Assembly: GCA_964016885.1 (NCBI GenBank)
Contig: OZ024740.1
Coordinates: 150,908,001-150,972,000 of the forward strand
DNA length: 64,000 nucleotides
Origin: Eledone cirrhosa
Taxonomy: Eukaryota
Reading direction: 5' to 3'
Every line of letters begins with the position of its first letter. The first letter of the stretch is position 1. Both the position numbers and the translations under genes were made by a program. A model generated the notes under the pieces. It searched no databases and was not told where the DNA came from. It saw nothing but the letters and a program-made list of their open reading frames with translations. Shown one piece after another: positions 1 through 64,000 of the stretch.

Positions 1-1372
1 TCTGGGGCGTCCGGAGCCGGTGACGTTCGGCCGAAATGTGCCTGTAGCTTAGTGCGTCGCACGAATCGCTCGACTTCCGTTCGGGTGCGGAACTCGTCGC
101 TGTGCGGAGTGTGGGGTATGAAGCGAAGGCCTCTACTAAGGAGTGAGCGCTCAGGTGCGGAGAGGGGGAGGTCAGGGGGGATGGTGACAACAAGTGGTGG
201 TGTTTGGGTGTTAGGGGTTGTGAGGTGGAGTGGGGTGATTAGGTGGGTGGGGGGGGAGTGAGTGTAGCTTGCGGGCTTTGGTGGAGCTGAGGAAGGAGAA
301 GAGGTTGTGGTTGAGGTTTTGGATGAAGGAGAGGATGGCTTGGGCGAGGAGGGGGTGGCAGGTGGAGTTAAGGCGGAGGAGGGAGGGGGTCAGTTGGTGG
401 TCAAGTTGGCGGAGGGTGGAACCGTAGGCGCGGATGGAGTTGCGCATCAGGAGGCGTGAGGATCGGCTGAGGATACGTTGCGTGGGTGGGGGGGGGAGCG
501 GCGGGGGCAGGGTGGAAGTGTAGACGGAAGCCGAGGGGGATAAGGTGGAGGCGGAGGCAGTGGCTGAGGAAATGGATGTGGCTGGAGTGCCGGGTTTTGG
601 CGAAGAGAAGGTAGGAGAACTGAAGGGCAGAGGGGAGATAGCAGAGTGGGAGGAGGGGGGGTGAGGAAAAGTTTGAGGCGATTATGTAGTTGGTGGAGAA
701 AGGATCTCAGGCTGGGCATGGTGGGCGTTGGGTGAAAGCAGGGGGATGGATGAGAAGGCAGGGGTGTGAAGCGGGGTGGAGTGAACGAAGGAGTGAGTGC
801 GAAGGATAGGCAGAGACGGGGAAGGGAAAATGAAACAGAAAAACGTAGGGAGGGGGGAGTAAACACAGGAAAATTAAAGACAAAAAATCATAAAGGTAAA
901 AACACAGGCAATCGTGAACAAAAAATCATAGAAATAAAATTGTAAGAACACAGGCAAGGAATCATATACGGAAATAAACAAGTACAGTAACAAAATCAAA
1001 CAGAGGTAATGCGTGGAAGGAAAGACCAAGTGTGGGAAGGTGTGTAAAGTTCGGAGAAAGGTCACGGCGGATTAGATCGGGGTTGAGCCGGTATTTAAGT
1101 TATGTTCCAAGGAATGGAAGCCGTGTGAGCGTGTATTATATATAATGGAAAAATTTGAACAGGAACAAAACAGAGAGGCAGTACAACGAATGTTTATTAA
1201 TTTCACGCTCTGGAGAGTGGGGTGTTGGTGGGGAACGACGTTTCGGGCATAAGCCCTTCCTCAAGTGAGAAGTGCGTGGGAACAGAGTTCAAAGGGTGTG
1301 TAGGGGAGTGGTGGAGAGACATATAGCGAAAGGAAACGGTGCGAATGAAATACAGTTGTTAGGTCCCTTTTC
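1..1372 (-). mobile_element. 5' end of a Penelope-like element (PLE), running off the left edge of the window
   Basis: The minus-strand frame over ~200-1 reads PLVVTIPPDLPLSAPERSLLSRGLRFIPHTP...EVERFVRRTKLQAHF. This matches the PLE N-terminal LSxGLxFxP...FxRxxRL motif also seen at 12763 and ~32730. It is preceded by frameshifted Pro/Leu-rich ORFs (211-447, 447-866). A hammerhead-like motif lies upstream, and the element is bounded by (TA)n at ~1374. Confidence 0.75.
1235..1266 (-). ncRNA. Degenerate minimal type-I hammerhead ribozyme in a PLE pseudo-LTR
   Basis: The reverse complement reads ac-TTGAGGA-a-GGGC-ttat-GCCC-GAAAC-GTC-gt. Stem II is perfect but stem I is only ~2 bp. AATAAA follows downstream. 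Confidence 0.5.
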
Positions 1373-1865
1373 TTATATATATATATATATATATATATAT
1401 ATATATATATATATATATATATATATATATATTATAAAGAAAACAAAAAATCAGTGATGCATCTGGACTTAGTTTATTTCGTGTTACAAATGTTTCGCCG
1501 GGATGTAGCTCGAGTCATGGTCCTTGTATGGATCTGGCTGATTCTACTTCTGCGGGTTCTTTCAGACACGGGTGTTATGTCCGGATCAAATTTTATCACT
1601 GGGGTGTTATCAAAACAACACCCTCAAAAAACCCTCTTTCCACACCTGTCATGCCATTGGCTGTTTTTACTCCACGTCATCACAAGTTCTGGTCAGTATC
1701 TGCTGCCACACGGTTTATCAACCATTTTCCGTCCGACACATTTCAATGGAGTCATGCTGGGTTCAGTACTTCACACGTCTGCTCACACTTCAGGGTAAGC
1801 ACCCACACATACTAGAATAAACACATAGTAACACACACACATTCAGACACATACCTATCTATGCA

Positions 1866-2272
1866 TTCACACTCGTACGTCTACATGCGCAGACACCCAC
1901 ACCGCCACATACATCGCAGTATATATACTCACACACCCTCTCTCCCTTACTCCCATGGACCCAGTCACAGACACTTGTTAATACATACCGCCACGAGCCT
2001 TCTGACTGTTCTGTATCAATTGGGTAAGCATGTCCTATTCAAATGTACACATATATACATACAGATGTATATATACATATATATGTGTACATTTGAATAG
2101 GACATGCTTACCCAATTGATACAGAACAGTCAGAAGGCTCGTGGCGGCATGTATCAACAAGTGTGTGTGACTGGGTCCATGGGAGTAAGGGAGAGAGGGT
2201 GTGTGAGTATATATATACTGCGATGTATGTGGCGGTGTGGGTATCTGCGCATGTAGACGTACGAGTGTGTAT
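1866..2272. repeat. Long inverted repeat (~190-bp arms, slightly diverged)
   Basis: cacactcgtacgtctacatgcgcag...ctattcaaatgtacacatata (1868-2056) is mirrored by tatatgtgtacatttgaatag...ctgcgcatgtagacgtacgagtgtg (~2080-2269). Confidence 0.9.
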
Positions 2273-2433
2273 GAGCGTGTGTATATATATATATATATAT
2301 ATATATATATATATATATATATATACACACGCTCATACATACGCATATATACATACACACATACATTCACATACATACATATATACACACCTGCGTATAC
2401 AAACATATATATATACACACTTAGGATTTTTTC

Positions 2434-2486
2434 ATTCGGATGAATGAAAGCAAATATCGTTTGCTTTCAAGAAACCACTGGTAAAC
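2434..2486 (+). ncRNA. Type-I hammerhead motif with a mutated core (CGGATGA)
   Basis: tt-CGGATGA-a-TGAAAGCAAA-tatcg-TTTGCTTTCA-a-GAAACC-act-GGTA-aa, with a 10-bp stem II. Confidence 0.6.
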
Positions 2487-3444
2487 AAAATAATTATCTT
2501 ATTTTGTTCATTAGATAACTATATGTATATATATATATACATATATATATATATATATATACACACACATACATACATACACCCACATATATACACAAAC
2601 ATAAACTCACACATGTCCGCACACACATACGAACTCATACGTACATAAACATTGCCTACACACGTACCCCCCCCCACACACACACACATACACACACACA
2701 CACACACACATATATATATATATATATATATACATACACATATATACACACAAAAAAGGAAAAAGGACAACTTAACATGCATACGCACATCCACACATAT
2801 ACATACAAATACCCACGCATAGGCCGATATACATACATCTACACATGTGTACGCATGCATGCTGCTGCATGGATACACCTGCATGCATGCACATCTGCCT
2901 ACACACACAGAACTGCCAGCACATATACATGTACATATATAAACACACCTGTAAGTGAACAGTTGAAAATACATTATGCAATAAAAAACAGTATAACATA
3001 AAACTGTATAATAACATAAAGCAGTTATATATGTATATATATGTATATATATATGTATACATATATATATATATATATACATATATAACTGCTTATGTAT
3101 ATATATATATGTATAATTATATATTTATATATATATATATATATATAAAATTATATTAAATTATATTAAATTGTATTAATTTATATTATTTTATATTATA
3201 TATATATGTGTATGGCTTGCATTTATCTGTTGCCTATCTATAAGCTTGTGGAACACCCATGGGCTACGCAATTCAAGTACCTACCAGTATACTTTGTATA
3301 TGTATACCATGGCGAGGATGTTAATTACTGTGGTCTTTCTGGATGAAAAGAACATATTAGTGCTTATATAACTCTAAGTTACGGAGATCCTATTCACTTG
3401 TTTTATAGGGACCAGCGCTTAAATTCCTCTGGCTTTTTTATGTG

Positions 3445-62297: not shown

Positions 62298-62660
62298 GGA
62301 TGGTGGTGGTGGTGGTGGTGGTGGTGGTAGTAGGATAATGACGGTGGTAGTACAGGTGGTATTGTTGGTAGTGTTAGTGGTGGTGATGGCCTTCGTAGGA
62401 GAGGTGGTATATTTAGTATGGGTGAAAGATGACCTGGTGGTAATGATGGTGTTGGTGGCGGTGGTGCTGGGGGAACATGGTAATGGTGATGGAAGTAGTA
62501 GAGGTGGTGGCGGTGGTGGTATTGGTGGTGGTGGTGGTGGTGGTGGTGATGGTGATGGTAGTGGTGGTGGTGGTATTGGTGGTGGTGGTGGTGGTATTGG
62601 TGGTGGTTGGTAATGGTGGTGGTGGTGGTGTTATTGGTGGTGATGGTAGTGGTAATGCTA
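62298..62660. repeat. (GGT)n-rich low-complexity tract
   Basis: Visible directly. It produces the spurious poly-Gly, poly-Val and poly-Thr ORFs. Confidence 0.9.
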
Positions 62661-62984
62661 GTATTATAAGCTTTATTGATGACACCTGTGATGATCGTTA
62701 AGAGGCTGTTGGCGGTGATAACAGGTATGAATATGAGAGCAATAATAACGGTTTTAACAGTTATGTTGGTGGGATGGTGATGTTGGTAGTTGTTGTGGGC
62801 GTCGTGGTCTACATTGTTCGTTGACGCATTGTTGGCTCTGATTGACGAGGGTGATCTTGATGCTGGTATTGGATGGGCTGATGTTTATTATAAAAGGATA
62901 AAGATTCCATAACCTCCTTGTGGAGTCGTAGAGGCGGAGCCCGACCATCTCCAAGTCTGAACACAACCGATTTTTCTACATAGG

Positions 62985-63150
62985 AAGTATCGACCCCAGT
63001 ACTGGACTGGTAGGGATTTTTTAACAACCTCGAAAGTATGAAAGGCAAAATTGATCACGGCGGTATTTGAACTCAGAACGCACAATGAGGTGGGACGAAT
63101 ACTGTAAAGCATTCTCTCCGACGTCCAAACGACTCTGCCATTCGCTGCCT
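62985..63150 (-). mobile_element. tRNA-derived SINE, same family as 60724
   Basis: The reverse complement reads ggcagcgaatggcagagtcgtttgg...gagttcaaatacc...ttgcctttcatac...taccagtccagtactggggtcgata. Confidence 0.75.
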
Positions 63151-63514
63151 ATGATTATTGTTATGTCACAGATGTTAGTAGATGTGGTAATTATTTAAAA
63201 TTGTTCGTAGAGATGGTACACTGCTAGTAGTAATGGTTATAGTAGAGCGTATTGCTTTGATGTATTGATAGTAATGTAAAAGCATAATAGGCAATACCGA
63301 TATATAGACAAGTAACTGTGTACATATATACGAACACAGAAACACACACACCCTCACAAACACCCACCCACACACGCATATATAATACATATACACATAC
63401 TACACACACACACACACATGTATATATATTTATATATCCATGTATATATATATATATATATATATGTATAGAGTTTTGCGAGGTTTTTTATATGAAATCG
63501 TGTGTCGAAACAGA

Positions 63515-64000
63515 TATTGTTATATTTGGGGAGGGTCATATTTGCGTAATATTGCCAGAATTAATAACAGAACACACTCACTGTTTGGTTGGTTTTCGCT
63601 TCTCGCTGTCTTTTATATATATATATCTGCGATCTAACTTACTCGGTCCTCAATGTTGCCATTGACTGACCGGCGGTAAAAAATAATACAAATACAATAT
63701 AGACACAAACACATATATATATAGTTTACATAATTTACATAAATCTTTCGTTGCACAGCTGCAACATCGTCAGTGGTGTTATATTCATTGTTCCTCCTGT
63801 TGTGTTGTATGTCTACGCCATTTTTTTTGTTCAGTCTGTCTATATATTTATTTATTTATTTGCTTGTTTGTTTATCTTATTTTATTTTGTCTTCTTTGCG
63901 CATGCGTTTGCGTGTGTGCATAGTGTTATGTGTGATGTGTGACTAGTGTGTATAGTGACTAGTGTGTATAGTGTGTATAGTGTTGAAAAAATCCTCAACG
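63515..64000 (-). mobile_element. PLE pseudo-LTR family copy (homolog of 6900-7560) with a hammerhead at ~63737-63776
   Basis: The reverse complement reads cca-CTGACGA-t-GTTGCA-gctg-TGCAAC-GAAAG, with the same terminal ATGACCCTCC..ATAACAA motif. Confidence 0.75.

Follow-up and report, generated by a model that had tools for sequence, protein, structure and literature searches.

Penelope-like elements, non-coding hammerhead repeats and U6 fusions in a 64-kb region of the Eledone cirrhosa genome: sequence evidence for probable ribozyme cleavage in vivo

Introduction

The 64,000-nucleotide stretch of Eledone cirrhosa DNA analysed here (the window, C1:150,908,001-150,972,000 in a 3.0-Gb genome) contains many Penelope-like elements (PLEs), type-I hammerhead ribozyme motifs and (TA)n tracts. 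An earlier note on this DNA read it as an autonomous/non-autonomous system, in which PLEs move short ribozyme-bearing non-coding units into (TA)n. The locus thus raises the questions of which units are independent passengers, which enzyme copies them, and whether the hammerheads cut in the living cell. What PLE hammerheads do is described as unclear in PMC8557442; in PMC4209133 and PMC11167929 their cutting in vitro is reported as weak or protein-assisted, and no in vivo evidence is given. Taken together, the results below suggest, with a probability of about 0.75 for the whole reading, a pile-up of TA-bounded PLEs and of their truncated fold-back ends, accompanied by non-coding hammerhead repeats that are copied by PLE enzymes, with hammerheads that cut in vivo.

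Results

U6 copies at predicted hammerhead cut sites

Hammerhead cleavage leaves 5'-OH and cyclic phosphate ends. The U6 small nuclear RNA (snRNA) itself ends in a cyclic phosphate, and RtcB is described as joining it to 5'-OH RNA (PMC6789731). Copies of U6 were searched by their 3' end plus the next letters, blind to the partner; this pattern misses copies with C at the last position and changed U6 ends. Of the 88 matches, 30 lie in one array, two are promoter-bearing genes and the remaining 56 are spread over 55 loci. Among these 56 dispersed matches, 51 were examined at the level of the locus and five were classed from 26 letters. About 31 of the 55 dispersed loci run into sequence resembling short or long interspersed elements (SINEs or LINEs), while 15 run into an identifiable PLE end.

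The junctions were compared with a library of 253 descriptor-defined cut sites at offsets from -12 to +12. At 12 of the 15 PLE loci, representing seven families, an intact U6 3' end is joined exactly at the predicted cut site, which is where the 5'-OH is expected; four of these families occur in the window as units listed in the earlier note or as their neighbours. Nine loci match the library at offset 0 with at most one mismatch, and L346 has the exact junction in one arm and a changed letter of the U run in the other. Both arms cross the U6 junction in two of the 12 loci (L346 and L372/373). Two further candidates, L388 (a TA-only match) and L350 (a chance match), were set aside.

Ordinary truncations fall on the cut site in 0-2% of cases, as against 12 of 15 U6 fusions. 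The family of the unit at 42893 has 100 non-native versus 9,696 native matches at this site, about 2% when pattern misses are allowed for. Among unselected loci, copies starting at the cut site numbered 1 of 49 (family of the unit at 34620) and 0 of 32. The family of the unit at 4139 gave 85 non-native junctions at its cut site, about half of which are inverted arms joined through stem I. In 20 hand-picked loci with a non-native junction, other RNAs also occur at PLE cut sites, namely a 28S piece (E 2e-26), an 18S-like piece (E 2e-5), a WD40 coding (mRNA) piece and a GC-rich piece, three of the four being present in both arms. Because the U6 copies sit exactly at predicted cut sites, it is likely that PLE hammerheads cut in living cells.

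Some other features of the U6 copies were recorded. Thirteen of the roughly 31 SINE- or LINE-like loci join nearly the same point of one family, and four loci (L363, L377, L362 and L382) hold U6 fusions with PLE-like inverted arms or tails, two of them sharing one junction. A tandem array of about 30-35 U6 genes with a spacing of about 1.8 kb lies at G000:C19:31.78-31.84 Mb, and a U6-array unit at L326 has a SINE-like insertion in its promoter. At L396 and L397 the same short foreign end stands at the cut sites of two PLE families; Rfam gave no name for it.

Non-coding hammerhead repeats and their architecture

Three families, designated 53k, 48k and 55k, consist of head-to-tail monomers of a few hundred nucleotides (nt) that include a type-I hammerhead, and they have no coding capacity, the longest ATG frames reaching 35-78 amino acids (aa). 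Judged by these sequence features, they are true non-coding hammerhead repeat families, i.e. retrozymes. The 53k monomer measures about 420-520 nt (479 nt in long arrays, which reach 14 units) and has 14,029 core matches, and the 48k monomer measures about 440 nt with 1,470 core matches. In the window, positions 48594-48676 mirror the 3' end of the 48k copy across a TA tract. In the window copy of 55k the start of the hammerhead (about 55653-55733) has been lost, whereas copies from six of six other loci have an intact hammerhead; the earlier remark that this unit, placed at 55478, has no clear ribozyme holds for the window copy and not for its family. The fourth family, 54k, has 2,282 candidate matches, and no hammerhead was found in it with three core patterns on the dimer, both strands. 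It appears to act like a PLE passenger and falls outside the retrozyme class for want of a hammerhead. When the monomers of all four families were compared with 17 autonomous PLE stretches, no match beyond low-complexity or flank hits was obtained. Within the part of the genome that was sampled, the 53k, 48k and 55k monomers did not belong to an autonomous element.

All four non-coding families have a truncated arm in inverted orientation and two alternative 3' ends, about 58, 40, 86 or 90 nt apart depending on the family. This one-sided difference, or tail, has been attributed to the use of two internal start sites by the PLE enzyme and is considered unique to PLEs (PMC11167929). With this architecture observed, it is likely that the passengers are copied by PLE enzymes. 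The tail pattern links the spread of retrozymes to these enzymes more directly than co-occurrence and sequence likeness do.

The 53k units are closely alike within most of the insertions examined. Arrays of 11 and 14 units showed 0-0.55 mean differences per 235 nt, and in eight of nine insertions the average difference between units is 0-2.7 letters per 235, in inverted as in direct arms, compared with 0-43 differences between insertions; both arms are multimeric in three of the nine. Such uniformity fits one copying event, whether round a circle or along a uniform multimer. A stable circular fold of the 53k monomer (z about -12) was discarded as evidence because the TA palindrome largely drives it.

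A U6-like promoter layout in two retrozyme families

The 53k and 48k families share a single 56-nt stretch (75% alike), located just upstream of the hammerhead. Within it, an octamer and a TATA-like box lie 42-45 nt apart. In three of the genome's own U6 genes, an octamer-like motif lies at -76 to -78 and is followed by a TATA box at -30, which gives a spacing of 46-48 nt. The two retrozyme families therefore carry an octamer-plus-TATA layout like that of the U6 promoter in this genome, and it may act as a promoter. In 600 kb of genome samples (see below), four of nine extended octamers have a TATA box 40-50 nt further on, and all four of these layouts stand just upstream of a hammerhead core, three being of the 53k type and one belonging to a further family. 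Octamer plus TATA in a further hammerhead family was seen at L097:2712 (minus strand) and 7361, as an inverted pair ending in TA.

Targeting of TA tracts

An element was counted as TA-ended when (TA)4+ lay within 15 nt of its 3' end, and the best-match loci of each family were excluded from its count. The 3' ends of four PLE end families satisfied this in 76 of 79, 33 of 40, 20 of 20 and 10 of 10 copies, whereas random points gave a background of 5.5% (range 4-7%). For 53k, 17 of 28 ends were adjacent to TA and the other 11 continued into the next monomer. The figures for the other families were 17/29 within 25 nt for 48k, 6/6 for 54k and 5/11 for 55k, the last a small and weaker count. The claim that elements are bounded by (TA)n was thus confirmed. 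Nesting and the multiplication of targets, also proposed earlier, are supported by the presence of TA at both ends and by the locus L232, where a PLE end is inserted within the internal TA tract of a 53k-family monomer. Near-perfect spacerless palindromes were noted at 13289-13676 and 48345-48676, centred in or beside TA tracts.

Units that are ends of autonomous PLEs

The earlier note had listed eight non-coding units, all but that at 55478 with a clear ribozyme. A reading as ribozyme-bearing non-coding passengers stands for those at 48110, 52976 and 55478 and fails for the five others: 54615 can be kept in an autonomous/non-autonomous system only as a passenger without a ribozyme, and 4139, 4405/34620, 34972 and 42893 are all ends of autonomous PLEs, for which parents were found. 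The note had accepted that its idea would fall for units that were mere truncations of autonomous elements, and these four are such a case because they are autonomous PLE ends. Consequently none of them lies outside an autonomous element, as a retrozyme should.

The units at 4405 and 34620 keep just the 3' half of the hammerhead, and the full parent element has a U3-A8 hammerhead. The ten best matches of the 34620 unit are 202-nt fold-backs between TA tracts, and a pattern extended further upstream of this end gave 4,077 matches. Upstream of the end lies a 3' untranslated region (UTR) of more than 1 kb and, still further upstream, Hydra-type frames of 689 and 695 aa. A fixed 202-nt miniature inverted-repeat transposable element (MITE) or SINE was ruled out by the unselected copies and by this open reading frame (ORF)-bearing parent. 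A C3-G8 core before the half-hammerhead was also rejected, as it had only 42 mixed matches; the true core is U3-A8 and lies further upstream. The 34620 family has about 24 copies in the 600 kb of samples, which suggests that tiny fold-back ends number in the order of 100,000 across the genome. At L189, a chimeric hammerhead combines a 5' half of the 55k family with a 3' half of the 34620 family.

For the 4139 family, 18,599 core matches were counted, and a Hydra-type ORF begins right after the unit in two of 30 position-ordered loci. Thirteen hammerheads of this family within 65 kb at G000:C28:30.50-30.56 Mb share one cut-site change. No hammerhead was found in the 34972 unit; a PLE frame lies near 10 of 20 of its loci, one of which runs straight into a GIY-YIG-type domain. 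The 42893 unit, with 9,696 exact matches for its family, matches the ends of the PLE at 29-33 kb. Positions 34133-34596 and 4859-5546 hold two additional multi-copy units that are bounded by TA and end in two alternative ways (15 and 26 loci).

Hammerheads of the window and genome background

Hammerheads were searched with a type-I descriptor at tighter and relaxed settings, with 60 shuffles each as the null. This gave 15 and 20 motifs, respectively, versus shuffle means of 0.13 and 1.5. The U3-A8 core variant added two motifs at the tighter setting (shuffle mean 0.3), and a looser U3-A8 setting showed three clear motifs at 29211, 33148 and 42963. Over all settings taken together 23 hammerheads passed, or about 27 when damaged copies judged by eye (4187, 17557, about 33.84 kb and about 55.7 kb) are included, so the former estimate of 25-30 was about right. 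Fourteen of the 23 lie in or beside autonomous PLE families, that at 7795 being assigned only by likeness to the 3' region of the neighbouring frame. The non-autonomous units hold only four (48211, 53335, 53667 and 54178), and the one at 4142 is a piece of the terminal repeat of an autonomous element. No parent was traced for those at 3955, 5296, 7315, 17557 and 63738, a kind that makes up four of the 23 descriptor motifs. An Rfam scan of the window gave 284 matches, of which the best 150 were nearly all hairpin noise and included no hammerhead.

The genome was sampled with 60 evenly spaced 10-kb pieces, 600 kb in total. TA tracts occupy 6.4% of bases in the window versus 5.9% in the samples (bootstrap P 0.32) and number 12.8 versus 10.1 per 10 kb (P 0.22), so the TA load does not single out this region as a special block, contrary to the earlier view. 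The samples contain 53 hammerheads, i.e. 0.88 per 10 kb or about one per 11 kb, and one shuffle gave none. The window has 2.5 per 10 kb and thus exceeds the mean of the samples 2.8-fold (16 in 64 kb vs 53 in 600 kb); the bootstrap P of about 0.001 overstates this excess, since the window is a chosen and contiguous stretch. Across samples, the number of hammerheads rises with that of TA tracts (Spearman 0.53), and if the rate of 53 per 600 kb applies throughout the 3.0 Gb, the genome would contain about 260,000 of them. A repeat search of the window was dominated by microsatellites. These results showed that the window is a typical piece of a genome-wide PLE landscape, rich in hammerheads yet without a special TA block.

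Autonomous PLEs and other features

The features of the window are collected in Table 1. The frames at 20.4-23, 40.6-42.7 and 44-46.7 kb carry the motifs of the Hydra clade (RWK-type, DKT and CxCx5C). RWK-type, DKT and CxCx5C motifs without GxKF were found in the frame at 40578, in the elements at 18.7 and 43.4 kb and in the parents of 34620 and 4139, along with the hammerheads and (TA)n insertion expected of this clade. The frames at 10.9-12.9 and 30.8-32.8 kb have a CX2-5CxxC linker, as Neptune-type elements do. Among 11 frames compared with Pfam, RVT_1 fell just under the cut-off in one (the 664-aa frame) and zinc-finger families were found in two non-PLE frames; no family was found for the other eight, and Pfam named none for the Hydra-type frames. 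Some members of the Atlas look-alikes of the Hydra-type frames carry GIY-YIG or RVT_1, and a PDB search with the 664-aa frame gave no match. The 3' parts of non-PLE retroelement-like frames (zf-RVT; C2H2 fingers) are located at 49619-50419 (minus strand) and 51765-52784 (plus strand).

Table 1. Coordinates of the features found in the window
Position	Strand	Feature	Remarks
1-1373	-	PLE 5' part, GxRF motif	Hammerhead 1235-1266; element cut by window edge
4139-4233	.	Fold-back piece from a terminal repeat; autonomous Hydra-type PLE other than that of 34620	Damaged hammerhead
4406-4630	-	Second fold-back copy of 34620-type PLE end	Related subfamily
9984-13290	-	PLE, 664-aa open frame 10913-12904	GxKF, YxDD, CxxC linker; hammerhead 10158-10196
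13967-17250	.	Hydra-type PLE remnant, inverted arms	Hammerheads 14011 (-), 17059 (+)
18668-24463	+	Hydra-type PLE, broken ORF between inverted arm and two terminal repeats	Hammerheads 18717, 20129, 24261
28905-29025		Further fragment of 4139-type terminal repeat	
29073-33242	.	PLE, broken reverse transcriptase (RT) and endonuclease frames (minus strand, about 30.8-32.8 kb)	Terminal copies in inverted orientation; U3-A8 hammerheads 29211, 33148
34621-34822	-	Fold-back 3' end of autonomous Hydra-type PLE	3' half of U3-A8 hammerhead only
34973-36610	.	Inverted pair of autonomous-PLE 3' UTR pieces	Parent with C-terminal GIY-YIG-type domain
37289-39218	+	Truncated Hydra-type PLE: endonuclease remnant and 3' UTR	Hammerhead 39101
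40578-42716	-	Hydra-type PLE, 713-aa open frame	RWR, DKT, YRDD, CxCx5C, YIG motifs
42891-43148	-	Fold-back terminal fragment of the 29073-33242 PLE family	U3-A8 hammerhead 42963-43008
43392-48077	+	Hydra-type PLE, inverted arm and two terminal repeats	Hammerheads 43805, 47977
48110-48676	+	Retrozyme family 48k, truncated copy with short inverted arm	Hammerhead 48211-48260
52975-54481	+	Retrozyme family 53k, inverted arm and two tandem units	Internal (TA)n, outer ends in (TA)n; hammerheads 53335-53379 (-), 53667-53711 (+), 54178-54222 (+)
53586-53635	+	53k octamer (53586) and TATA-like box (53628), upstream of hammerhead	Spacing 42 nt; putative promoter
54530-55174	.	Non-coding tandem family 54k, monomer about 496 nt	Fold-back copy, 86-nt one-sided extension
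55486-56255	-	Retrozyme family 55k, tandem and inverted arm, monomer 523 nt	

Discussion

Proposed origin of the region

The following series of events is proposed. A PLE protein would nick (TA)n and copy RNA from two internal starts, producing a direct and an inverted arm that differ by the tail; this mechanism has been established in vitro for another PLE, and the corresponding pattern is observed here. Most copying stops early, as seen in the copies, and short fold-back ends therefore predominate. Non-coding monomers of 440-520 nt with their own hammerhead would use the PLE route in trans, two of the passenger families having the U6-like promoter layout, and the near-identical units in both arms fit copying round a cut RNA that may have been circularised. 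Cutting would leave a 5'-OH on the piece bearing the start points. An RtcB-type ligase could then join this piece to cyclic-phosphate RNAs, above all U6, and the fused RNA would insert like any PLE, leaving the observed junctions. Finally, insertions end in TA on both sides and some hold TA inside, and targets would therefore multiply.

A more specific proposal, for and against which we see about equal weight, is that PLE hammerheads, even weak U3-A8 ones, cut in the germ line, that host RNAs with cyclic phosphate ends, namely U6 and pieces of ribosomal and messenger RNA, are ligated to the ribozyme-cut end and inserted into (TA)n, and that retrozymes with the U6-like promoter circularise by the same chemistry. 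If true, PLEs would capture host RNA by a ribozyme-and-ligase route, and the genome would keep a fossil map of ribozyme activity. The U6 fusions would let cleavage be read from any assembly, by mapping U6 3' junctions on the ribozyme.

Several observations weigh against the proposed origin. Retrozyme cut sites are joined to U6 in none of the 88 matches, and the 53k cut site has only 21 non-native junctions. No partner could be assigned at nine U6 loci, and the roughly 31 joined to SINE- or LINE-like sequence mean that template jumps can also make U6 fusions. Among the exact junctions, L378 and L359 were scored against hammerhead-like parents found by BLAST that fail the descriptor; elsewhere L379 is off by one (-1), L380 is weak at +5 and L361 is only probable. 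The ribosomal and messenger RNA fusions come from loci selected by the cut-site junction without a neighbouring-position control, and at the 28S and mRNA junctions 1-3 letters may be common to the PLE and its partner. Close to its end, each U6-like monomer has 7-10 successive T, at which polymerase III should halt before the whole monomer is transcribed. The insertion at L035 mixes divergent 53k units (12.5 mean differences), an alignment of tails intended to name the partner clade of the passengers gave no convincing shared motif, and the clade assignments of the window PLEs rest on motifs.

Alternative explanations

The fusions could also be due to a template jump, in which the RT reaches and leaves the free 5' end of an RNA that was cut beforehand and resumes copying at the 3' end of another, abundant one, no ligase being required. 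This is a listed route for LINE-1 chimeras (PMC11838501), and it agrees with the large share of dispersed U6 loci joined to SINE- or LINE-like sequence (about 31 of 55) and with the short shared letters at the 28S junction. However, copies that merely begin at the cut site are rare, the same junction is crossed by both arms in several loci, and the chemistry of U6 ends described above (PMC6789731) fits ligation. We consider a jump possible but tentative, and prefer ligation by about 2 to 1. The in vivo cut would be real in either case because both need a cut.

The tandem non-coding units could instead be orphan PLE terminal repeats amplified by satellite-like unequal crossing-over. Four of the eight listed units did prove to be PLE ends, bioRxiv 10.64898/2026.07.22.740005 includes local expansion among its scenarios, and the comparison of monomers covered only 17 autonomous stretches. 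On the other hand, multimers in the inverted and direct arms share private variants, the families are scattered over many chromosomes, and no PLE ORF was found directly upstream in 30 + 30 position-ordered loci, where the few matches were more than 1 kb off or of low complexity. This origin is unlikely.

It is more doubtful still that no cutting takes place in vivo and that the enzyme pauses at the folded RNA and jumps to U6. Metazoan PLE hammerheads are weak in vitro (PMC4209133), anole RNA-seq as presented in PMC11167929 shows no reads at the site, and truncations of the 34620 family do cluster in the hammerhead fold, with 35 of 49 unselected copies 5'-truncated in or near stem II. This cluster lies 20-50 nt upstream of the cut site, however, while the U6 junction is nucleotide-exact in seven families with different stems.

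Fold-back DNA transposons of MITE type with TA target duplications and incidental hammerheads, suggested by the appearance of 34620 and 34972 as inverted repeats between TA tracts and by the nearly uniform full length of the best 40 matches of 34620, are very improbable and largely refuted by the ORF-bearing parents, since unselected copies have variable hairpin centres (38 copies in the 34620 family) and a one-sided extension and run upstream into PLE ORFs.

Comparison with known systems

PLEs in TA repeats and retrozymes as PLE passengers are already known, the latter from PMC7229834 and bioRxiv 10.64898/2026.07.22.740005. The new elements are the PLE-specific two-end tail on passengers, the U6-like promoter layout in two of them and the U6 fusions at cut sites. 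A literature search combining Penelope, U6 snRNA and hammerhead found no such report, most subscription papers being outside its reach.

The families described here resemble the metazoan non-LTR (long terminal repeat) retrozymes of those two sources in their tandem non-coding type-I hammerhead monomers, thousands of copies, low GC content (32-36%), occurrence beside autonomous PLEs and proposed movement by PLEs. They differ in the structure of their insertions, which have (TA)n ends, an arm in inverted orientation and a tail on one side; the main text of PMC7229834 does not contain the words "inverted" or "microsatellite". The monomers, at 440-520 nt, are above the 150-450 nt range given in PMC7229834 and inside the 51-972 nt range of bioRxiv 10.64898/2026.07.22.740005, and have no sequence link to the PLE ends compared, unlike the Xenopus families.

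The autonomous elements are similar to the Hydra and Neptune-type PLEs as described in PMC8557442, sharing RWK-type and DKT motifs, the CxCx5C linker, hammerheads, (TA)n insertion, partial tandems, an inverted truncated arm and a tail. The tails extend up to 60-90 nt here (vs 30-40 nt), and some 3' UTRs exceed 1 kb and themselves contain (TA)n. Their ribozymes agree with the minimal hammerheads reported in PMC4209133 and PMC11167929 in the short or palindromic stem III, the unpaired base before stem II, the U3-A8 covariation and the position in terminal repeats, except that genomic fusions here mark the predicted cut site.

The octamer-plus-TATA layout recalls newt satellite 2 (Coats et al. 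1994, via PMC2220036), a hammerhead repeat with an internal snRNA-type promoter that is described there as a polymerase II promoter; the predicted layout here is U6-like. As in the U6/LINE-1 chimeras of PMC6789731, the 3' end of U6 with its U run appears to have been joined to a retroelement RNA and then inserted, except that U6 is combined here with a PLE and that the ribozyme site sets the position of the junction, which is variable in those chimeras.

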